Origin: a virus
Taxonomy: Duplodnaviria; Heunggongvirae; Uroviricota; Caudoviricetes
IMG/VR virus record: IMGVR_UViG_2671180294_000014
Length of the DNA: 33,339 nucleotides
Strand: one strand, 5' to 3'
Below the pieces are notes generated by a model. The model was given only the letters and a program-made list of their open reading frames with translations. It was not told where the DNA came from and ran no database searches. This document shows, piece by piece, positions 1 through 26,786 of the stretch. The translations under genes were made by a program, and so were the position numbers. Each line of letters begins with the position of its first letter. Position 1 is the stretch's first letter.

Positions 1-981
1 TTATAACGTCACTCCGCCTTTTAGTGGATTCAGAGCGACGGCATTTTGCAGATAGTCAGGCGCAAGGTGCGCATAGGCCATCGTCTGCTGAATGCTCGCA
101 TGTCCCAGAATCTGTTGCAGTGCGATTATATTGCCCCCATTCATCATGAAATGGCTTGCGAATGTATGCCGCAGGATGTGGGTTGCCTGATTGGGTGGTA
201 TATCAGGTTTCACTCTGCGTAAAATCCCGCAAAATTTCTCATAATCAACTTTGAATAATTTGGCGCTGGCCTCCTCTTTAACTTTTTTCTCCAGTTCCTC
301 AGAAATCGGCACGGTTCGCTTTTTACCGTTTTTGGTTTTCAGGAAGGTAACCCTGCAATTTGTAATCTGTGCTGGTTTTAGCGTGGCAACTTTCGTCCAT
401 CTTCCTCCAGTGCTCAGACATAAAAGCGCGACAAGTAAGTCATCACCAGCCAAAACATTTAACAGTTTTTCGATTTCTGCTTTTTCCAGGAACGTCATTT
501 CAGGGTTGGCCTCCGCCAGTGGCGGCAGTCCGTGAATTGGGTGTTGCCCGGAAAATTCATCCAATTGAATTAATTTTGTGAACATGCCGGATAATCTGTA
601 CATGTCACGGTTTATCGTTGCGGCACTGATACCATCACGTAGTCGCATGGAACGATAATCCATCAAAGCCCTTTTGCTCATCCTGCTCACTGGTATATCA
701 CCTATGCCGCTGATGGTTTTGAGTAGATGATTAAACTCTTTTGTTCCATGCTCGTGGTTTTGCCCGTGATATTTCCACCAGATGTCCAGCAACTCACTCA
801 AAGTCCGGCGGTCTGCTCGCTGGCCTCCCCATTCTTTCTGACTGGCATTGGCGATTGTGTATCGCTCAAATGCTAGTGCTTCAGCTTTTCTTTCGAATTT
901 CCTGCGGATGCGTTTTCCGTCGCGACCGCGAGGTCTAATGTCCACTTCATAGCGACCATCATCGAGCTTCTTAATTGCCAT
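1..981 (-). CDS. int: P2-family tyrosine integrase
   Basis: ORF 1..1011(-). Product resembles P2 Int as I recall it (N-term MAIKKLDDGRYEVDIRP; C-terminal HxLRHTFAS...Y catalytic region). Start set at ATG 979-981 by that homology; upstream alternative start at 1011. Stop codon is the first 3 nt of the window, so attL lies outside it. Confidence 0.9.
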   Translation of the reverse strand: MAIKKLDDGRYEVDIRPRGRDGKRIRRKFERKAEALAFERYTIANASQKEWGGQRADRRTLSELLDIWWKYHGQNHEHGTKEFNHLLKTISGIGDIPVSRMSKRALMDYRSMRLRDGISAATINRDMYRLSGMFTKLIQLDEFSGQHPIHGLPPLAEANPEMTFLEKAEIEKLLNVLAGDDLLVALLCLSTGGRWTKVATLKPAQITNCRVTFLKTKNGKKRTVPISEELEKKVKEEASAKLFKVDYEKFCGILRRVKPDIPPNQATHILRHTFASHFMMNGGNIIALQQILGHASIQQTMAYAHLAPDYLQNAVALNPLKGGVTL

Positions 982-1050
982 AAGAAAGCCCTCCGGCGCT
1001 GTATTCACCATCTTGGTAGCAAATGGTGAAAATGTAATCTTTATATAGAG

Positions 1051-3237: not shown

Positions 3238-3509
3238 GTATTCGTATTGAAATTGGCGAACGTTATGTCGTTACCAGTGACAGCTTCCAGTTTATTCTCC
3301 ACGAGAAAAAGAGAGCGGAAAGCGGTAAAAACGCCGGTCAGGAATGGCTGGCGGTGGTTGGTTATTACCCGAAATTAAGCCAGCTCGTTTCCGGCCTGAT
3401 GCATCACGATATTCTGACCGGAAGCGCAAAGTCTTTTGCTGATTTAAACGCGCAGGTTGAGCAACTCAGCAAGCGTTGTTCAGAGGCTTTTGGCTCATAT
3501 GGCCGTTAA
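3234..3509 (+). CDS. hypothetical early protein (P2 orf83 position)
   Basis: 91-aa ORF; ATG overlaps the upstream stop; 3' end overlaps the start of A. Confidence 0.55.
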   Translation: MSIRIEIGERYVVTSDSFQFILHEKKRAESGKNAGQEWLAVVGYYPKLSQLVSGLMHHDILTGSAKSFADLNAQVEQLSKRCSEAFGSYGR

Positions 3510-5796
3510 AGCCTCCGGGCGTTTTGTCCCTCCGTCAGCATTTGCTGCAGGCACCGGTAAGGCGTTTACCGGTGCTTATGCATGGAACGCGCCACGCGAG
3601 GCTGTCGGGCGCGAAAGACCCCTTACACGTGACGAGATGCGTCAGGTGCAAGGTGTTTTATCCACGATTAACCGCCTGCCTTACTTTTTGCGCTCGCTGT
3701 TTACGTCACGCTATGACTACATCCGGCGCAATAAAAGCCCGGTGCACGGGTTTTATTTCCTCACATCCACTTTTCAGCGTCGTTTATGGCCGCGCATTGA
3801 GCGTGTGAATCAGCGCCATGAAATGAACACCGACGCGTCGATGCTGTTTCTGGCTGAGCGTGACCACTATGCGCGCCTGCCGGGAATGAATGACAAGGAG
3901 CTGAAAAAGTTTGCCGCCCGTATCTCATCGCAGCTTTTCATGATGTATGAGGAACTCAGCGATGCCTGGGTGGATGCGCATGGCGAAAAAGAATCGCTGT
4001 TTACGGATGAGGCGCAGGCTCACCTCTATGGTCATGTTGCTGGCGCTGCACGTGCTTTCAATATTTCCCCTCTCTACTGGAAAAAATACCGTAAAGGACA
4101 GATGACCACGAGGCAGGCATATTCTGCCATTGCCCGTCTGTTTAACGATGAGTGGTGGATTAGTCAGCTTAAAGGCCAGCGTATGCGCTGGCATGAGGCG
4201 TTACTGATTGCTGTCGGGGAGGTCAATAAAGACCGTTCTCCTTATGCCAGTAAACATGCCATTCGTGATGTGCGTGCACGCCGCCAGGCAAATCTGGAAT
4301 TTCTTAAATCGTGTGATCTCGAAAACAGGGAAACAGGCGAGCGCATCGACCTTATCAGTAAGGTGATGGGCAGTATTTCTAATCCTGAAATTCGCCGGAT
4401 GGAGCTGATGAACACCATTGCCGGTATTGAGCGTTACGCCGCCGCAGAAGGTGATGTGGGGATGTTTATCACGCTGACCGCGCCGTCAAAGTATCACCCG
4501 ACACGTCAGGTTGGAAAAGGCGAAAGTAAAACCGTCCAGCTAAATCACGGCTGGAACGATGAGGCATTTAATCCAAAGGATGCGCAGCGTTATCTCTGCC
4601 GTATCTGGAGCCTGATGCGCACGGCATTCAAGGATAATGATTTACAGGTCTACGGTTTGCGAGTCGTCGAGCCACACCACGACGGAACGCCGCACTGGCA
4701 TATGATGCTTTTTTGTAATCCACGCCAGCGTAACCAGATTATCGAAATCATGCGTCGCTACGCGCTCAAAGAGGATGGCGACGAAAGAGGAGCTGCGCGA
4801 AACCGTTTTCAGGCAAAACATCTTAATCGGGGCGGTGCTGCGGGGTATATCGCGAAATACATCTCAAAAAATATCGACGGCTATGCACTGGATGGGCAGC
4901 TCGATAACGATAGCGGCAGACCGCTGAAAGATACTGCCGCGGCTGTTACCGCATGGGCGTCAACGTGGCGCATTCCGCAATTTAAAACGGTTGGCCTGCC
5001 GACAATGGGGGCTTACCGTGAACTACGCAAATTGCCTCGCGGCGTCAGCATTGCTGATGAGTTTGACGAGCGCGTCGAGGCTGCACGCGCCGCCGCAGAC
5101 AGTGGTGATTTTGCGCTGTATATCAGCGCGCAGGGTGGGGCAAATGTCCCGCGCGATTGTCAGACTGTCAGGGTCGCCCGTAGTCCGTCGGATGAAGTTA
5201 ACGAGTACGAGGAAGAAGTCGAGAGAGTGGTCGGCATTTACGCGCCGCATCTCGGCGCGCGTCATATTCATATCACCAGAACGACGGACTGGCGCATTGT
5301 TCCGAAAGTGCCGGTCGTTGAGCCTTTGACTTTAAAAAGCGGCATCGCCGCGCCTCGGAGTCCTGTCAATAACTGTGGAAAGCTCACTGGTGGTGATACT
5401 TCGTTACCGGCTCCCACACCTTCTGAGCACGCCGCAGCAGTGCTTAATCTGGTAGATGACGGTGTTATCGAATGGAATGACCCGGAGGTTGTGAGGGCGC
5501 TCAGAGGTGCATTAAAACACGGACTGAGAAGACCAAACCGTCAGCAAAGAAACGGAAGCCCGTTAAAACCGCATGAAATAGCGCCATCGGCCAGACTGAC
5601 CCGGTCGGAACGAATGCAAATTACCCGTATCCGCGTTGACCTTGCTCAGAACGGTATCAGGCCGCAGCGATGGGAGCTTGAGGTGCTGGCGCGTGGGGCA
5701 ACCGTAAATTATGACGGGAAAAAATTCACTTACCCGCTCGCTGATGAGTGGTCGGGATTCTCAACAGTATTAGAGTCAAACTCAGTGAAGCGTTAA
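3499..5796 (+). CDS. A: replication initiation protein A (rolling-circle initiator)
   Basis: ORF 3457..5796; start set at ATG 3499 (MAVKASGRFVPP...), matching my recollection of P2 gpA over its whole length (765 aa here). Confidence 0.93.
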   Translation: MAVKASGRFVPPSAFAAGTGKAFTGAYAWNAPREAVGRERPLTRDEMRQVQGVLSTINRLPYFLRSLFTSRYDYIRRNKSPVHGFYFLTSTFQRRLWPRIERVNQRHEMNTDASMLFLAERDHYARLPGMNDKELKKFAARISSQLFMMYEELSDAWVDAHGEKESLFTDEAQAHLYGHVAGAARAFNISPLYWKKYRKGQMTTRQAYSAIARLFNDEWWISQLKGQRMRWHEALLIAVGEVNKDRSPYASKHAIRDVRARRQANLEFLKSCDLENRETGERIDLISKVMGSISNPEIRRMELMNTIAGIERYAAAEGDVGMFITLTAPSKYHPTRQVGKGESKTVQLNHGWNDEAFNPKDAQRYLCRIWSLMRTAFKDNDLQVYGLRVVEPHHDGTPHWHMMLFCNPRQRNQIIEIMRRYALKEDGDERGAARNRFQAKHLNRGGAAGYIAKYISKNIDGYALDGQLDNDSGRPLKDTAAAVTAWASTWRIPQFKTVGLPTMGAYRELRKLPRGVSIADEFDERVEAARAAADSGDFALYISAQGGANVPRDCQTVRVARSPSDEVNEYEEEVERVVGIYAPHLGARHIHITRTTDWRIVPKVPVVEPLTLKSGIAAPRSPVNNCGKLTGGDTSLPAPTPSEHAAAVLNLVDDGVIEWNDPEVVRALRGALKHGLRRPNRQQRNGSPLKPHEIAPSARLTRSERMQITRIRVDLAQNGIRPQRWELEVLARGATVNYDGKKFTYPLADEWSGFSTVLESNSVKR

Positions 5797-5882: not shown

Positions 5883-6905
5883 ATGACTGTAAAGGTGATA
5901 GACCTTTTTTGTGGTGCTGGCGGATTAACTCATGGTTTGCAGCTTGCGGGGCTTGATGTCGTTGCAGGCATTGACCTTGAGGGGGAATGTAGGTTTCCCT
6001 ATGAAAGAAACAATAAATCTAAGTTTATTGAGCAAGATATCGCTAAAGTAACAAAAGAGGAACTGCTGAGGCTTTATGGTGATGCGTCTGTAAAAGTATT
6101 GGCAGGATGCGCACCTTGCCAACCTTTTTCAAAATATACTCAAGGAAAAGATAAGGCTGATGATAAAAAATGGCCTCTTCTTTATGAGTTCGAACGTTTA
6201 ATTCGCGAAGTATCTCCAGAAATCGTAACAATGGAGAACGTTCCTGATGTAACTAAACATAAAGTTTATAATGATTTTTATAATTCATTGTTAAAGTTGG
6301 GCTATTATGTTTGGGCGTCTAAGATTGATTGTGTCGAATATGGAATCCCACAAAACCGTTCCCGTCATGTATTGTTGGCCTCAAAATTGGGGGCGATTGA
6401 GTTAGTAAAACGTGACGATGTTATTTTGAAAACAGTTAGAGATGCAATAGGAAATCTTCCTCCATTAGAAGATGGCCAAACAGATCCAAATGATATATTA
6501 CATAGAGCCAGTAAATTAAATCCGATTAATAAAAAAAGAATTATACACTCTGTTCCTGGTGGTACATGGAAGGACTGGCCGAAAGAGTTGGTTGCCGCTT
6601 GTCATATGAAATCCAGCGGTAAAGGGTATGCTAGTGTATATGGGCGCATGTCTTGGGATAAGCCAAGTCCAACAATTACAACTCTTTGTTATGGTTTCGG
6701 GAATGGGCGTTTTGGACATCCAGAACAGCATAGAGCGATTTCTCTTAGAGAGGCTGCTTTATTGCAAACTTTCCCGATGGATTATATTTTTGTAGAAGAC
6801 AAAAACAAGTTTGTTATAAGAAGTATTGGGAAAATGATAGGTAATGCTGTTCCTGTGGAACTAGGAAAAGCAATTGGGCAATCAATCAAGAACCATTTAG
6901 AATGA
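5883..6905 (+). CDS. DNA (cytosine-5)-methyltransferase, no recognisable cognate restriction endonuclease
   Basis: ORF 5880..6905; ATG 5883 with GGAG 6 nt upstream. Canonical C5-MTase motifs seen directly: I DLFCGAGG, IV PCQPFS (catalytic Cys), VI ENV, VIII QNRSRHV, X GNAVPV. AT-rich compared with the phage backbone. Confidence 0.9.
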   Translation: MTVKVIDLFCGAGGLTHGLQLAGLDVVAGIDLEGECRFPYERNNKSKFIEQDIAKVTKEELLRLYGDASVKVLAGCAPCQPFSKYTQGKDKADDKKWPLLYEFERLIREVSPEIVTMENVPDVTKHKVYNDFYNSLLKLGYYVWASKIDCVEYGIPQNRSRHVLLASKLGAIELVKRDDVILKTVRDAIGNLPPLEDGQTDPNDILHRASKLNPINKKRIIHSVPGGTWKDWPKELVAACHMKSSGKGYASVYGRMSWDKPSPTITTLCYGFGNGRFGHPEQHRAISLREAALLQTFPMDYIFVEDKNKFVIRSIGKMIGNAVPVELGKAIGQSIKNHLE

Positions 6906-6911
6906 TAAAAT

Positions 6912-6928
6912 GGCCTGCTTTACAGGCC
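6912..6928. terminator. bidirectional intrinsic terminator between convergent genes
   Basis: GGCCTG-cttta-CAGGCC hairpin flanked by an A-run on the left and a T-rich stretch on the right, between the MTase stop (6905) and the stop of the minus-strand gene (6935). Confidence 0.6.
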
Positions 6929-6934
6929 TTATAA

Positions 6935-7615
6935 CTATTGTTCTAAATATTCATTATTATTTATATAGTGCTCTATATTATTCACGATAGCATCAAGATA
7001 GGCGATTACTTCTAATGAAATATTCTCTAAGTCCTGATATGAAACATTTTTTCCAATCTCAGCAAATGATACATTGCCATGAGATAAATCATTACGATGT
7101 TGTTTAACAGTGGCTAATTTTTCACCATGTTTAGTGTGAGTGTAATCGGAATGTGTAGAAAAACCATATATTTTCGATTTTTCTTTGATTTCCTCTCTAT
7201 CAATATTTCCTGAGAATATTTTCTTTTTGTTGAACGTGCCATAAGATATACCGCAAGATATACCTTTGGTAAGGTGATTAACTAAACTTTCAACATTTAC
7301 AGATTCATTTTTTAATCTTTTTAATATTTCTGACCTGAGATTTTTCCTGAGTTTGTCAAATTCTACGTTTCTATCATAAATAGTCTCATGAATAAGGCAG
7401 ATAGCTTCTCTCATTGTTGATTCAATGAGGTTATATAACAGTATATATACTGCTCCCTTTAGAGTTTTTCGTGATTGAGCAGTAATGGAGAACTTATGTT
7501 CTTTATCATCAGCTGATATCAGTTCTGCACCGGCATACTCAATAAATTTCAAAAGATCCAAATAGGCCAAGATCTCTCCTGACCTTTCGTCAAAATCCTC
7601 ACGAAAACGATCCAT
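6935..7615 (-). CDS. hypothetical protein with HEPN-like Rx4H motif; downstream gene of the two-gene cargo operon
   Basis: 226-aa ORF. ATG at 7615 lies 1 nt after the upstream gene's TAA (TAAcATG); GAGGA RBS. C-terminal region has KQHRNDLSHGN, matching the HEPN Rx4-6H signature. Strongly AT-rich. Confidence 0.65.
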   Translation of the reverse strand: MDRFREDFDERSGEILAYLDLLKFIEYAGAELISADDKEHKFSITAQSRKTLKGAVYILLYNLIESTMREAICLIHETIYDRNVEFDKLRKNLRSEILKRLKNESVNVESLVNHLTKGISCGISYGTFNKKKIFSGNIDREEIKEKSKIYGFSTHSDYTHTKHGEKLATVKQHRNDLSHGNVSFAEIGKNVSYQDLENISLEVIAYLDAIVNNIEHYINNNEYLEQ

Positions 7616-7616
7616 G

Positions 7617-8759
7617 TTAATCCTCTAATAATTTATCCCGAACATATTCAATTCGTTCAATTACCTTCACGCGACTATTAGCTCCGTCGGAAGTGGTCAA
7701 TCGTTTGAATTCTTCTGAGCTTAGCCAATCTAAGTTCTTGGGAACAAGGTCAGGGACTTCACGTAATGCAAGTGCTGCGCCAACAGCGAGAGATTCGAAT
7801 CTAACTCGAGGTGTAGATTTTGCAGTAATAGTTTTCTTGAATCCTGCTGGGAAATAGTTTTCAACAAAAGATAGAACATTAGCAAACTCTTGTTTCATTG
7901 AGTTTTGTTTAGTTTCGTCTATATCTCGATTTTCTGACATATAGTCATTTAGAAAATCCCGTACGGAATGATCAAAGTTCTTGTACTTATCTACGTAGGC
8001 AAAGAATCTTAATGTAAATTCTAACCGTTCATCTCGTTTTTCTTTAGTCTGAGATAAAGGTGCTAATTCTTTAAATTTAGGTATTGTTGAGCATGGCTTA
8101 ATAACCTGTGTATATAAATTTGTTGAACCAAGTTCTGATCCTTTACGGACTTCCATATCTTTCAATATATCGCTGCCAGAGTTAATACGCTCAAAAAGAT
8201 CTCTACGGGTTTCTTCATTGCATTTAGAACTCAATTCTATAACGCGGACAGGAATTCTCATGAAACGACGTTGACGTGATAATGGTAAATCTTGGAATTT
8301 GAAACCATTAAGGACGTCTAAAGATTTCAGGTCTTGTAAAACTAATTCATTTTGGATAAAAGCGTGTATAGTCCTAACTCGTTGTGAGCCATCAACAATC
8401 TCAATTCGCCCATCTAAATCGGGATCTTCGGAGAGAACATCTGCTATAAATATATATGGTATAGGAAAACCCAAAATCAAAGACTCTATCAATTTTGATT
8501 GTCTTTTTTCACTCCAAACAAAATCCCTTTGATAATCAGGAACAAAGAGTTCGTTAGTATCATCCTCTAATCCGTTATGATACTTATTAACTAATAACTC
8601 AACGGTAAATTCTTTGGTCTCAAAATCCACATCCTTTTGCTCAGCACGAATTTGCTCTTCAGCGTTTTGCTTTATCACCTCTAGCTGAGCAAGCAACTCT
8701 GCTCTTTTCTTGGCATTATCTTCATTTTCTAGTTGAGATTTTAAATCAATAATGTCCAT
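7617..8759 (-). CDS. DUF262 (ParB/Srx-like, GmrS-type) domain protein; upstream gene of the two-gene cargo operon
   Basis: ORF 7617..8777 (TTG start); ATG at 8759 preferred (AAGGGAA 6 nt upstream). Shows DUF262 hallmark motifs: PDYQRDFVW and IEIVDGSQR (DGQQR-type). N-terminal coiled-coil-like segment. No HNH/DUF1524 motifs found in the C-terminal half. Confidence 0.7.
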   Translation of the reverse strand: MDIIDLKSQLENEDNAKKRAELLAQLEVIKQNAEEQIRAEQKDVDFETKEFTVELLVNKYHNGLEDDTNELFVPDYQRDFVWSEKRQSKLIESLILGFPIPYIFIADVLSEDPDLDGRIEIVDGSQRVRTIHAFIQNELVLQDLKSLDVLNGFKFQDLPLSRQRRFMRIPVRVIELSSKCNEETRRDLFERINSGSDILKDMEVRKGSELGSTNLYTQVIKPCSTIPKFKELAPLSQTKEKRDERLEFTLRFFAYVDKYKNFDHSVRDFLNDYMSENRDIDETKQNSMKQEFANVLSFVENYFPAGFKKTITAKSTPRVRFESLAVGAALALREVPDLVPKNLDWLSSEEFKRLTTSDGANSRVKVIERIEYVRDKLLED

Positions 8760-8944
8760 GTCTAGTTCCCTTAACAAGTGTTAAAAATTGAAGCGGATAG
8801 CATACCGCATAGATCATGAAAAATGCCATCATGTGCATGGATTTGCATGCGTCAGAAGTCGCTTTTATTGTTAGTTATCACTAGCGCTGGCGTGCTCTTG
8901 GAGTGTTCATGCAACTGCATTAAAACCGCCCCATGAAGCGGGCG

Positions 8945-23124: not shown

Positions 23125-23652
23125 ATGCAGCATTTGATAAATATAACGGCAGGTAATCCAAAAACGGTTGAACAATATCAATTGACAAAGGACTTTGATG
23201 TTGTCTGGTTTTTTTCAGAAGATGGTAAGAACTGGTACGAAGAACAAAAGTATTTTGCTGATGACACGATAAAAATAGCGTACGACAAAGATAATATTAT
23301 CCGCTATGTGGAAAAGGATGTGACAGCTATCAGACCGGATGGATTAAGTGTTGTTGAAGTGCCGGATATTACTGCTAACCGACGGGCGGACATTTCAGGG
23401 AACTGGATGTTTAAGGACTGTACAGTGATTAAACGAATTTATACGGCAGAGGAATTGCAGCAGCAGGCAGAAAATCGGAAAGCCAGACTTCTTGCAGATG
23501 CTGAATCCGTGATTTTGCCGCTGGAGCGCGCTGTCAGGCTGAATATGGCAACAGATGAGGAGCGCAGTCGACTGGAGGCATGGGAACGCTACAGTGTTCT
23601 GGTCAGTCGTGTGGATCCTGCAAATCCTGAATGGCCGGAAATGCCGCAATAA
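23125..23652 (+). CDS. G: tail fibre assembly protein (chaperone)
   Basis: 175 aa directly after H; position and size match P2 gpG. Confidence 0.85.
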
Positions 23653-23766: not shown

Positions 23767-25185
23767 CTACATCGGGCTCTTATATGGGGAATGAGAGTTT
23801 TTGAAACGCGGTTCTTCATGCTTCGGACTGTAAATTCTTGCATGATTATCTATCACAACTTTACTTCCAAGAATATCTCGAGCTTCTCCTAACGACCACA
23901 CAGTAGAAAGATCATTAGTCAAATTTCGATAGAGAGCACGAAACCCCTTGGGTTTTTTAAGATCATATAAGAAATCAGGAACTTTAACTTTAAAATTAAA
24001 GGTCGGTAGTTTCGGAAGGGAATTAATAGCCGCAACAGTATTGTATACATGTACAAGCTTAGTTACAGGTACACCTTGTCTAGTCTTGAGCCCATACTTA
24101 GTTCGAATATAATCTGATTCTTTCGATACTTCAGTAAGCAATGCTCTTACTGACTTATTAGCTTGAGGCAATTCATTTTCATCAAACAAGCGCTTTATTT
24201 CTCGCATTTTCTCACGGGCCCTTACAAATTCGTTGTTGTCCCTTATGTTATAAGCAGCTTCAACAATACAACTTGGATCACCAGTTTCTTTTGCGAGCCA
24301 TGCCGAAAATAAAGGAAGCGAAGTTGCTGTTGCTACAGCTTTACCACCAGAATGAATATCAATGAGATCATGACTTAACGAAGTGGAAAAGTTTTCTACA
24401 ATATGTTTAGCATAGTCAAAACCATACTGACAGTTTTGGCTTAAATATGTCTGTTGATACGCCTGACGTAATGGATATAAAAAAGTATCTGCTTGAAGGT
24501 ACTTAGCTGTGAGAGAATAAAATACTGCCCGATTAGCCAGCCATACAAGCGAAGCCACGAATGCTTTGATTGCATCTGATGCTTCACCAGCAGATGTGCC
24601 ATCCCCCCATTTTGCTCCGGGAACTTTGTACCCCTTGCGAATAGGGTTGCCAAATCGATCGAGAAGTTCAACATCGCCATTTGTTCTATTACCAGACTCA
24701 GCAGCATCACGCAGTTCTGAAAAAATGGCAGCAGCAATGTTACCATATTTTTCAAACTCCTTACCTCCATCAGATAAGTTCTTCAGTGTTAGATGATAAA
24801 CACTTGAACTAATGTCCCATGTACATATGATATGTGTCTGAAGAAGTTCAATTAGTTTTTTAAAATCGTCATTAACAAATGTTCCACCACGAATTTTAGG
24901 TTTCAATGCATCAGATATTTTTTTTGCTTCACTTTCAATTTCATCCAACCCATATTGTGCTTTATCAAGAAATAATATCTCTCTGAAACTTGAAATCCTA
25001 CTCCCACGGTACTCTGGAATATAATCATCAACCGCGATAACGTGATCATAGAACAAAATAGACTGTATATAGTTCTCAAATGCTATTATGTCTGTATCTA
25101 CTGAGTCCTTCGATCTTGTTTTTACTTTCCCCTCGATTCTTTGGACTGCAGTTAGAGTTGAATTATCAATCAGTGCGTATGTCAT
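23767..25185 (-). CDS. hypothetical 472-aa protein, AT-rich cargo at the P2 Z/fun position
   Basis: Long clean ORF on the strand opposite to the flanking late genes. ATG at 25185 with AAGGA RBS. Markedly AT-rich. No Walker, HNH, PD-(D/E)xK or MTase motifs recognised; the only weak feature is a C-terminal RIYSPKH (Rx5H). Confidence 0.7.
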   Translation of the reverse strand: MTYALIDNSTLTAVQRIEGKVKTRSKDSVDTDIIAFENYIQSILFYDHVIAVDDYIPEYRGSRISSFREILFLDKAQYGLDEIESEAKKISDALKPKIRGGTFVNDDFKKLIELLQTHIICTWDISSSVYHLTLKNLSDGGKEFEKYGNIAAAIFSELRDAAESGNRTNGDVELLDRFGNPIRKGYKVPGAKWGDGTSAGEASDAIKAFVASLVWLANRAVFYSLTAKYLQADTFLYPLRQAYQQTYLSQNCQYGFDYAKHIVENFSTSLSHDLIDIHSGGKAVATATSLPLFSAWLAKETGDPSCIVEAAYNIRDNNEFVRAREKMREIKRLFDENELPQANKSVRALLTEVSKESDYIRTKYGLKTRQGVPVTKLVHVYNTVAAINSLPKLPTFNFKVKVPDFLYDLKKPKGFRALYRNLTNDLSTVWSLGEARDILGSKVVIDNHARIYSPKHEEPRFKNSHSPYKSPM

Positions 25186-25595: not shown

Positions 25596-26786
25596 ATGAG
25601 TGACTATCATCACGGCGTGCAGGTGCTGGAGATTAACGACGGCACCCGCGTCATTTCCACCGTATCCACTGCCATTGTCGGCATGGTCTGCACGGCCAGC
25701 GATGCGGATGCGGAAACCTTCCCCCTCAATAAACCGGTGCTGATTACCAATGTGCAGAGCGCAATTGCAAAGGCCGGTAAAAAAGGCACGCTGGCGGCAT
25801 CGTTGCAGGCCATCGCCGACCAGTCAAAACCGGTCACCGTTGTCGTGCGTGTGGAAGACGGCACCGGCGACGACGAGGAAACGAAACTCGCGCAGACCGT
25901 TTCCAATATCATCGGCACCACCGACGAAAACGGTCAGTACACCGGACTGAAAGCCCTGCTGGCGGCGGAGTCGGTAACCGGTGTTAAACCGCGTATTCTC
26001 GGCGTGCCGGGACTGGACACCAAAGAGGTGGCTGTTGCACTGGCATCAGTCTGTCAGAAGCTGCGCGCTTTCGGGTATATCAGCGCATGGGGCTGTAAGA
26101 CCGTTTCCGAGGTGAAAGCCTACCGTCAGAATTTCAGCCAGCGTGAGCTGATGGTCATCTGGCCGGATTTCCTCGCATGGGATACGGTCGCCAGTACCAC
26201 CGCCACCGCGTATGCCACCGCCCGTGCGCTGGGTCTGCGCGCTAAAATCGACCAGGAGCAGGGCTGGCATAAAACGCTGTCCAACGTCGGGGTGAACGGT
26301 GTTACCGGCATCAGCGCGTCCGTATTCTGGGATTTGCAGGAGTCCGGCACCGATGCTGACCTGCTTAACGAGTCAGGCGTCACAACGCTGATTCGCCGTG
26401 ACGGTTTCCGCTTCTGGGGTAACCGTACCTGCTCTGATGACCCGCTGTTCCTCTTTGAAAACTACACCCGCACCGCGCAGGTGCTGGCCGACACGATGGC
26501 TGAGGCGCACATGTGGGCGGTGGACAAGCCCATCACCGCAACGCTGATTCGCGACATCGTTGACGGCATCAATGCCAAATTCCGTGAGCTGAAAACAAAC
26601 GGCTATATCGTGGATGCGACCTGCTGGTTCAGCGAAGAATCCAACGATGCGGAAACCCTCAAGGCCGGAAAACTGTATATCGACTACGACTATACCCCGG
26701 TGCCTCCTCTTGAAAACCTGACCCTGCGCCAGCGTATTACCGATAAATACCTGGCAAATCTGGTCACCTCGGTTAACAGCAATTAA
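25596..26786 (+). CDS. FI: contractile tail sheath protein
   Basis: 396 aa (MSDYHHGVQVLEINDGTRVI...), matches recalled P2 gpFI. Confidence 0.93.
   Translation: MSDYHHGVQVLEINDGTRVISTVSTAIVGMVCTASDADAETFPLNKPVLITNVQSAIAKAGKKGTLAASLQAIADQSKPVTVVVRVEDGTGDDEETKLAQTVSNIIGTTDENGQYTGLKALLAAESVTGVKPRILGVPGLDTKEVAVALASVCQKLRAFGYISAWGCKTVSEVKAYRQNFSQRELMVIWPDFLAWDTVASTTATAYATARALGLRAKIDQEQGWHKTLSNVGVNGVTGISASVFWDLQESGTDADLLNESGVTTLIRRDGFRFWGNRTCSDDPLFLFENYTRTAQVLADTMAEAHMWAVDKPITATLIRDIVDGINAKFRELKTNGYIVDATCWFSEESNDAETLKAGKLYIDYDYTPVPPLENLTLRQRITDKYLANLVTSVNSN

Follow-up and report, generated by a model that had tools for sequence, protein, structure and literature searches.

A methylase-linked DUF262-HEPN cassette in the gene A to cos hotspot of a P2-like prophage: a predicted defence system distantly related to PD-T4-2

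Introduction

What kind of system is carried between the replication gene A and the cohesive end site (cos) of a P2-like prophage, where the cargo differs sharply in composition from the phage around it? The question is raised by a viral sequence of 33,339 nucleotides (IMG/VR record IMGVR_UViG_2671180294_000014, Caudoviricetes), which is called the window below. An earlier note on this DNA had described two minus-strand genes at the site as a split anti-phage system with a DUF262 protein as sensor and a HEPN protein as effector, in a pairing that it did not recognise as a named one. The assignment of sensor and effector roles is still plausible, but the two-gene delimitation excluded positions 5883..6905 and thereby missed a convergent gene for a C5 cytosine DNA methylase.

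With this gene included, the island reads as a three-gene anti-phage cassette in which a DUF262 sensor would control a HEPN RNase and the methylase would mark self DNA. A probability of about 0.5 is assigned to this reading. The cassette as a whole probably functions in defence.

Results

DUF262 and HEPN proteins

Residues 58-206 of the DUF262 protein matched the Pfam family GmrSD_N/DUF262 with an E-value of 7.7e-26, which confirms the identity first proposed from the motifs PDYQRDFVW and IVDGSQR. Both motifs are present, and 32 homologs with identities as low as 58% all keep them unchanged, with P74-D-Y-x-R and D123-G-S-Q-R127 as their fixed residues. The earlier observation that the protein lacks the nuclease half of fused enzymes also held, as no HNH or DUF1524 domain was matched by Pfam at E<=1. 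Among the PADLOC models, the best match was NsnA (1.6e-54, profile positions 23-376 of 385), and PD-T4-2_A was matched with 2.4e-35 (positions 55-356 of 363). A sequence search of solved structures returned weak N-terminal matches only. Solved relatives use their DUF262 domain as an NTPase (nucleoside triphosphatase) and cut with DUF1524/HNH, and DGQQR-motif mutants of HEC-06, another DUF262 system, lose defence. The protein is predicted to be a ParB/Srx-fold NTPase that ends in a helical domain like that of NsnA and lacks a nuclease, and its predicted role as a DNA sensor or switch follows from GmrSD, BrxU and SspE together with the loss of defence in the HEC-06 mutants.

The second protein matched HEPN_MAE_28990 (PF18737) with 5.8e-29 and 102.2 bits against a cutoff of 26.8, covering profile positions 6-211 of 211, and RiboL-PSP-HEPN more weakly with 8e-9. 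The Pfam matches of both proteins lie above the gathering thresholds, so the assignments are far beyond chance. The motif R174-N-D-L-S-H179-G (RNDLSHG), from which the protein had been read as HEPN, fits the conserved Rx4-6H pattern, and R174, N175, L177, H179 and G180 do not vary in any of 30 homologs, the most distant of which share 34% identity; the protein also has the all-alpha HEPN fold. Neither PADLOC (zero models at E<=1) nor a search of solved structures with the HEPN profile gave a match. An RNase effector is predicted from the invariant Rx4H motif and from the choice of the corresponding histidine, H127, for mutation in the validated system PD-T4-2.

C5 methylase as third component

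The methylase matched PF00145 with 3.4e-58, the dcm family TIGR00675 with 1.5e-37, and the PADLOC models MTase_II/DrmMII with ~1e-90. Its translation shows the motifs FCGAGG, PCQ (with the catalytic cysteine C79), ENV, QNRSR and GNAVP. The gene lies on the opposite strand and converges with the DUF262-HEPN operon.

C5 methylases normally vary most in the region between motifs VIII and IX, which reads the target. In the enzyme of the cassette, the C-terminal half of this target-recognition region (residues 221-280) is instead the best conserved stretch of the protein, with a column identity of 0.62-0.82 in 36 species of several phyla. From this conservation we infer that the whole methylase-linked clade shares one common target sequence.

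Selection was compared between the window and a diverged E. coli copy of 89% DNA identity. The ratios of nonsynonymous to synonymous substitution (dN/dS) were 0.077 for the methylase and 0.059 and 0.084 for the other two genes, while the synonymous divergence (dS) was equal for all three at 0.47-0.53. By these values all three genes are under purifying selection and have diverged together. Across lineages the methylase is conserved at least as well as the DUF262 protein, and both are conserved better than the HEPN protein.

The same hotspot also holds a second form, or allele, of the triad, found in four IMG/VR records (L127-L130; L numbers denote loci of this analysis) and in Peduovirus P24B2 (L093, NC_049387 29078-31979). 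In E. coli this allele sits in a P2 backbone almost identical to that of the window, with 98% identity in gene A and 99% in Q. The two alleles share 71-73% identity in the methylase, 45% in the DUF262 protein and 30-31% in the HEPN protein; by this comparison the effector is the fastest and the methylase the slowest evolving component. The P24B2 methylase is annotated as 234 amino acids only and may be truncated.

By linkage, selection and conservation, the methylase is read as a functionally integrated third component, and its presence shifts the picture from a two-gene sensor and effector to a triad resembling restriction-modification (R-M).

Distribution and linkage of the three genes

The HEPN protein has ~112 homolog clusters. 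In a survey with one genome per species, 473 loci encode a HEPN relative, and the best 80 of these 473 were examined for neighbours. The gene immediately upstream of HEPN is DUF262 in 92/92 genome-derived loci, in every one of the best 80 and in 42/42 viral loci from IMG/VR. The viral loci comprise 27 in P2-like phages and 15 in other phages; all three genes are present in 41/41 assessable viral loci, which represent at least 10 sequence lineages. Of the best 80 species-level loci, 36 have the methylase next to the pair and 40 lack it, while 4 could not be assessed (36/76 assessable).

The order DUF262, HEPN, C5 methylase was found in Vibrio jasicida, in Brasilonema and in two unrelated metagenomic lineages, and it is kept even in the most distant HEPN homologs (34-38% identity), all of these in non-prophage contexts. 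By taxon, a methylase adjoins the pair outside prophages in Vibrio, cyanobacteria, Bacteroidales and Pyrinomonadales, with three gene arrangements. Among the individually inspected cases, the methylase gene of one lineage precedes the pair on the same strand, and one locus lacks it. Among sequenced phages, the triad occurs in Peduovirus P24B2, in the same hotspot, and in Moraxella Mcat phages, beside a CI-like repressor.

On a neighbour-joining tree of DUF262, the presence of the methylase requires two parsimony changes. With so few changes, the methylase-linked form is read as an old clade, inside which the window falls. One to two methylase losses are seen within this clade, and a sister clade of 40 species has no linked methylase.

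Of 5,426 complete E. coli genomes, 9 contain the island, which in each of them is intact and situated between gene A and the portal gene. At the DNA level, the methylase never occurs there without the pair (9/9 co-occurrence).

Some individual copies stand out. The record IMGVR_UViG_2558860170_000011 (L096, 32,198 bp) shows 100% identity to the window in gene A, methylase, HEPN, DUF262 and Q alike, and it is probably the same element or the source of the window. The P2-like prophage of E. coli GN04592 (L001, 1950-5909) bears an 89%-identical triad with extra cargo round gene A, namely a PAPS-reductase-family protein upstream and DUF3850 with a small hypothetical protein downstream. In a metagenomic lineage (L011, 3006-4809), after the triad come another C5 methylase and a gene for the very-short-patch repair protein Vsr, the usual companion of 5-methylcytosine methylases. 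The window, unlike L011, has no vsr gene.

In cyanobacteria (L032, L040, L055, L059 and others), the methylase-less pair occupies a conserved position in the chromosome, just downstream of aconitase B, or of ClpB in Microcoleus. This site beside housekeeping genes suggests long vertical residence of the pair in filamentous cyanobacteria rather than recent mobility. An open reading frame (ORF) of ~890 amino acids lies immediately upstream of the pair in ~24/40 methylase-less loci; it was considered as an alternative methylase or helicase and rejected, as Pfam identified it as aconitase B or, in some loci, ClpB.

Relation to described systems

The pairing of DUF262 with HEPN turned out not to be new. 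PD-T4-2 was recorded by its discoverers as 'DUF262, HEPN' and confers protection from T4 on K-12 as well as on its native strain (Vassallo et al., 2022; PMC9519451). The same authors built an H127A construct of PD-T4-2B, and their HHpred search assigned this protein to PF18735 (97.8%) and PF18737 (96.9%) (PMC9519451). An operon class of the same kind had been noted in 2013, and RefSeq names the DUF262 and HEPN proteins by domain, while PHROGs lists both as 'unknown function'.

The genuine PD-T4-2 locus was found by searching the homology arm of the authors' lambda-red primer against complete E. coli genomes, and its identity was confirmed by PADLOC. It lies in E. coli 2009C-3133 (L095, NZ_CP013025.1 3553901-3555503), in the cargo hotspot psu-int of a P4-like satellite that is integrated at ssrA, with no methylase nearby. 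The start of PD-T4-2A, represented by the 50-nt primer arm, is present in 17 of 5,426 complete E. coli genomes. Genuine PD-T4-2A also matches NsnA (1.6e-58), and genuine PD-T4-2B matches three PD-T4-2_B models (7.9e-64 to 1.2e-32).

The cassette of the window shares with PD-T4-2 a two-gene operon of DUF262 and then HEPN in abutting genes (a gap of 1 nt here, 4 nt in PD-T4-2), a DUF262 protein homologous over its full length, HEPN partners in the same Pfam families PF18735/PF18737, and a place in a phage or satellite defence hotspot. By BLASTP, the DUF262 protein is 28% identical to genuine PD-T4-2A (L095:7001-8095) over 223 amino acids (E 5e-22). The cassette differs in the HEPN partner, which has 226 amino acids rather than 167 and matches none of the three PD-T4-2_B models, in the conserved cognate C5 methylase, which PD-T4-2 lacks, and in its site, P2 gpA-cos instead of psu-int of a P4-like satellite. 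An alignment of the HEPN protein with PD-T4-2B by hhalign covered only 15 columns around RNxxxH, with H179 opposite H127, at a probability of 1.1%. Since it lacks a match to component B and has a conserved extra component, the cassette is not counted as a member of PD-T4-2. The match to a named system is one-sided: the DUF262 protein matches PD-T4-2_A and NsnA, the HEPN protein matches no PADLOC model, and PD-T4-2 itself is validated but mechanistically uncharacterised.

The operon class of 2013 comes from the computational work of Anantharaman et al., who listed MAE_28990 HEPN, a ParB nuclease and a DNA methylase together and proposed a PrrC-like role for R-M-linked HEPN RNases (PMC3710099). 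This is exactly the triad of the window, which belongs to the class by both its ParB-fold protein and the adjacent methylase. The class appeared there as a table entry only, neither named, delimited nor surveyed, and its ParB-fold protein was called a nuclease, whereas what is now known of DUF262 favours an NTPase switch.

PD-lambda-5 (Vassallo et al., 2022), a validated system of broad range, consists of a ParB/HEPN fusion and a methyltransferase and was read by its authors as a compacted 'RM+Abi' (R-M plus abortive infection); it required a host deleted for the mrr region. Like the cassette, it is a prophage-borne module that unites ParB-fold and HEPN-like regions with a DNA methylase, and it is a precedent for methylase-linked logic. 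It is a single fused protein and not a split pair, its ParB region is PF02195-like rather than DUF262, and its methylase is an N6-adenine enzyme of the D12 class rather than a C5 enzyme. No PD-lambda-5 model is listed among the PADLOC matches of the window proteins.

Menshen (NsnABC) shares the full-length NsnA-like protein, with ParB-DUF262 and a C-terminal helical 'ParBDB', proposed as a DNA sensor. In the window, the NsnB ABC ATPase (AAA_15 + DUF3696) and the NsnC inPIN-nuclease are absent, and a HEPN effector and a methylase are found instead. Membership in Menshen was rejected despite NsnA being the top PADLOC match, given the absence of NsnB and NsnC and the equally good match of genuine PD-T4-2A to NsnA.

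GmrSD, BrxU and SspE have in common with the cassette the N-terminal DUF262 NTPase domain with its DGxQR motif. They differ in that the cassette has no DUF1524/HNH half, a separate RNase effector and a linked methylase, the last of which runs counter to type IV logic. R-M-linked HEPN genes are usually compared with PrrC-EcoprrI, which likewise couples a HEPN RNase genetically to a DNA modification and restriction module; PrrC is an ABC-ATPase-HEPN fusion in a type Ic R-M operon without DUF262.

In the papers searched, no mechanism for PD-T4-2 and no name for the triad were found, and PADLOC v2 calls neither the triad nor its HEPN component. The domain pairing, the hotspot and the operon type have all been described before, and the cassette is a distant methylase-linked relative of PD-T4-2.

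Locus and feature map

The window is a P2-like prophage by its gene layout, with integrase, gene A, portal Q, terminase P and then late genes (Table 1). The low-G+C island of 3 kb between gene A and cos holds the three genes and has a G+C content of 0.31-0.39 across 6000-8500, against 0.52-0.60 in the backbone. This location, between gene A and cos/portal Q and of atypical composition, fits the defence cargo of P2 hotspot #1 (the tin/old position), as had been proposed; the placement is supported by the positions of gpA, cos and Q. A P2 hotspot devoted to defence cargo is described in PMC9519451.

Within the island, the stop and start codons of the DUF262 and HEPN genes meet at TAAcATG with a gap of 1 nt. 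Purine-rich runs resembling ribosome-binding sites (RBS), AGAGGA and AAGGGA, lie 5-7 nt before each ATG of the two genes. The account of two coupled, AT-rich minus-strand genes with their own RBS was accurate in each of these points. The start of the DUF262 protein at ATG 8759 is also the RefSeq choice in near-identical E. coli copies.

The right-hand border was placed with GGCGAGGCGGGGAAAGCAC, which we take to be the P2 cos sequence. It has an exact, single match in the window, where 0 would be expected by chance. Two terminator-like hairpins on the minus strand (9125..9110 and 8945..8926) lie on either side of cos, in the stretch that separates the Q-P late operon from the DUF262 gene. On the other side of the operon, the G+C-rich hairpin between the two convergent stop codons is likely a bidirectional terminator, judging by its position. 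A scan for sigma-70 consensus promoters between cos and the DUF262 start gave nothing convincing, with a site count below the shuffled expectation. Several ATGC(A) repeats occur at ~8790-8850, upstream of the DUF262 gene.

Table 1. Positions of the cassette genes, their borders and neighbouring prophage genes in the window.
Feature	Position	Strand	Basis
Integrase	1..1011	-	window ORF
gpA replication endonuclease (gene A)	3457..5796	+	window ORF
C5 cytosine DNA methyltransferase, 340 amino acids from ATG 5883 (ORF opens at GTG 5880)	5883..6905	+	PF00145
G+C-rich hairpin GGCCTGTAAAGCAGGCC between two convergent stop codons (methylase 6905, HEPN 6935)	6912..6928	.	terminator-like site scan
HEPN protein, MAE_28990 family, 226 amino acids, predicted RNase effector	6935..7615	-	Pfam
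DUF262 protein, 380 amino acids from ATG 8759 (ORF reaches TTG at 8777), predicted DNA sensor/switch	7617..8759	-	Pfam
Non-coding stretch from cos to the DUF262 start, presumed site of the operon's own promoter	8760..8944	-	position
P2 cos cohesive-end sequence, right-hand border of the gpA-to-cos cargo hotspot	8945..8963	+	single exact match
Portal Q	9131..10165	-	window ORF
Terminase P	10165..11967	-	window ORF

Elsewhere in the window, an ORF of 472 amino acids (23767..25185, minus strand) lies in a second low-G+C island (~0.38) at the P2 Z/fun defence hotspot, where it is flanked by the genes for tail-fibre assembly (23125..23652) and tail sheath (25596..26786). It had no Pfam or PADLOC match; it matches phrog_13435 ('unknown function') over its full length, and the full stretch is found in 7 of 5,426 E. 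coli genomes. By position and composition, it is a candidate defence gene.

Discussion

In the proposed mechanism, the DUF262 protein would act as an NTP-dependent DNA sensor or switch, with the PDYQR and DGSQR motifs, a C-terminal DNA-binding domain of the NsnA type and no nuclease of its own. It would control the HEPN RNase through whose R174 and H179 RNA would be cut, and this cutting would probably stop the infection, with an abortive or growth-arrest outcome. The methylase would most likely mark resident DNA at one fixed sequence, so that only unmarked foreign DNA, incoming or replicating, would trigger the sensor. Overall, the cassette would follow R-M logic with an RNA-targeting output.

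A number of observations weigh against this mechanism. A sister clade of 40 species, mostly cyanobacteria, carries the pair without a linked methylase. In Dolichospermum (L026, 5713-5988), the methylase is reduced to a C-terminal remnant of 92 amino acids, 70% identical over residues 248-330, and in its sister taxon Aphanizomenon (L027) it is wholly lost; the DUF262 and HEPN ORFs and their motifs are intact in both despite the decay of the methylase. Only four conservative clade-specific positions, Y255F, P317T, R320K and A323S, all in the C-terminal domain, distinguish methylase-linked from methylase-less DUF262 proteins, so there is no obvious adaptation to methyl reading. The validated clone of PD-T4-2, from ECOR65, measures 1.8 kb and contains no methylase (PMC9519451). 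The characterised DUF262 sensors GmrSD, BrxU and SspE answer to modified and not to unmodified DNA. The specificity of the methylase could not be read from solved structures, as the nearest, M.HaeIII, matched the N-terminal catalytic half only (8e-22) and the target-recognition region had no informative match. The structural footing of the sensor is moderate too, with a predicted local distance difference test score (pLDDT) of 79 and a predicted template modelling score (pTM) of 0.49; Foldseek found nothing significant with this model. In favour of the mechanism, BrxU ranks first and SspE sixth for the same model. On the other side again, BLASTP finds no similarity between the HEPN protein and PD-T4-2B.

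Self-marking is the weakest step of the mechanism: the pair persists without a linked methylase in the sister clade, Dolichospermum and Aphanizomenon, and PD-T4-2 needs none. The sister clade and one natural decay show that not every such pair depends on a linked methylase, although in genomes of the methylase-less form an unlinked one with matching specificity could stand in for it.

The alternatives differ mainly in what they make of the methylase and of the DUF262 protein. Following Anantharaman et al. (2013), the triad could be a classical R-M system with a PrrC-like guard, in which DUF262 is a DNase on unmethylated DNA, the methylase protects self and the R-M proteins hold HEPN latent, to be released for suicide only once a phage neutralises restriction. 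The conserved methylase with its conserved target-recognition region fits this scheme, and PADLOC gives the DUF262 protein a weak match to REase_II (9e-6). Neither a nuclease domain nor a nuclease fold was detected in that protein, however, and its solved relatives cut with the DUF1524/HNH half that is missing here, their DUF262 domain being an NTPase. The methylase-less clade and the decay of the methylase beside intact partners are hard to square with an active methyl-sensitive DNase, and the choice of the HEPN histidine for the loss-of-function test of PD-T4-2 suggests that HEPN is the main effector rather than a backup. A guarded R-M system is accordingly regarded as unlikely. Those same methylase-less forms (40 species, L027 and PD-T4-2) are what speaks for an autonomous PD-T4-2-like pair that senses a phage cue regardless of methylation, with the methylase as a passenger that serves, for example, in anti-restriction of phage DNA. 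The methylase indeed lies on the opposite strand in a transcription unit of its own, and very few changes in DUF262 are specific to its clade. A passenger would nevertheless hardly be expected to stay linked across phyla, outside phages, in three arrangements and in 41/41 phage-borne copies of at least 10 lineages, nor to show the same dS as its two neighbours. The methylases are moreover orthologous, with a conserved target-recognition region and no random assortment, and E. coli has no methylase-only copy; the passenger explanation is held to be slightly less likely still.

Two further explanations depart more widely from the marking of self. All characterised DUF262 sensors read modified DNA, and PD-T4-2 was selected on T4, whose DNA contains glucosyl-hydroxymethylcytosine. 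A type IV-like system in the manner of GmrSD, BrxU and Dazbog could accordingly recognise foreign modified DNA (hydroxymethylcytosine, its glucosylated form or foreign methylation) and activate HEPN, leaving to the methylase the masking of host sites or a part in addiction. But if the sensor depended on modification, its fixed coupling to a cytosine methylase would carry a risk of autoimmunity, and there is no DUF1524 partner, which makes this explanation improbable. A selfish toxin-antitoxin (TA) or addiction module, with HEPN as toxin and DUF262 as antitoxin or regulator, would stabilise the mobile element and have no part in defence. HEPN proteins are common as TA toxins and the cassette moves between mobile contexts, yet its nearest validated relative truly protects the native host against phage, the hotspot that holds the cassette is given over to defence genes, and the methylase-less pair is stably chromosomal beside housekeeping genes. 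Pure addiction is considered very improbable.

The self-marking cassette, with DUF262 as sensor and HEPN as effector, remains the preferred reading. A broader proposal, put forward tentatively, is that the triad may be a distinct, widespread and unnamed class of immunity, in which a DUF262 NTPase switch would read the methylation of one fixed motif and license a fast-evolving HEPN RNase. It would resemble R-M with a restriction arm other than a DNase: the methylase, conserved across phyla in its target-recognition region, would set the motif, and the epigenetic distinction of self from non-self would lead straight to an abortive output aimed at RNA. The methylase-less clade and PD-T4-2 would then be derived forms that rely on another cue or on an unlinked methylase.

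Conclusions

One DUF262-HEPN core exists in two forms, with a C5 methylase (41 phage-borne and 36 species-level loci) and without one (40 species and PD-T4-2). PADLOC v2 is blind to the triad, and a dedicated model would annotate several hundred loci, given the 473 species-level genomes that encode a HEPN relative. The cassette is a natural handle on how DUF262-only sensors such as those of PD-T4-2, Menshen and Dazbog tell foreign DNA from self, and the contrast between methylase-linked and methylase-less forms makes this discrimination directly testable.

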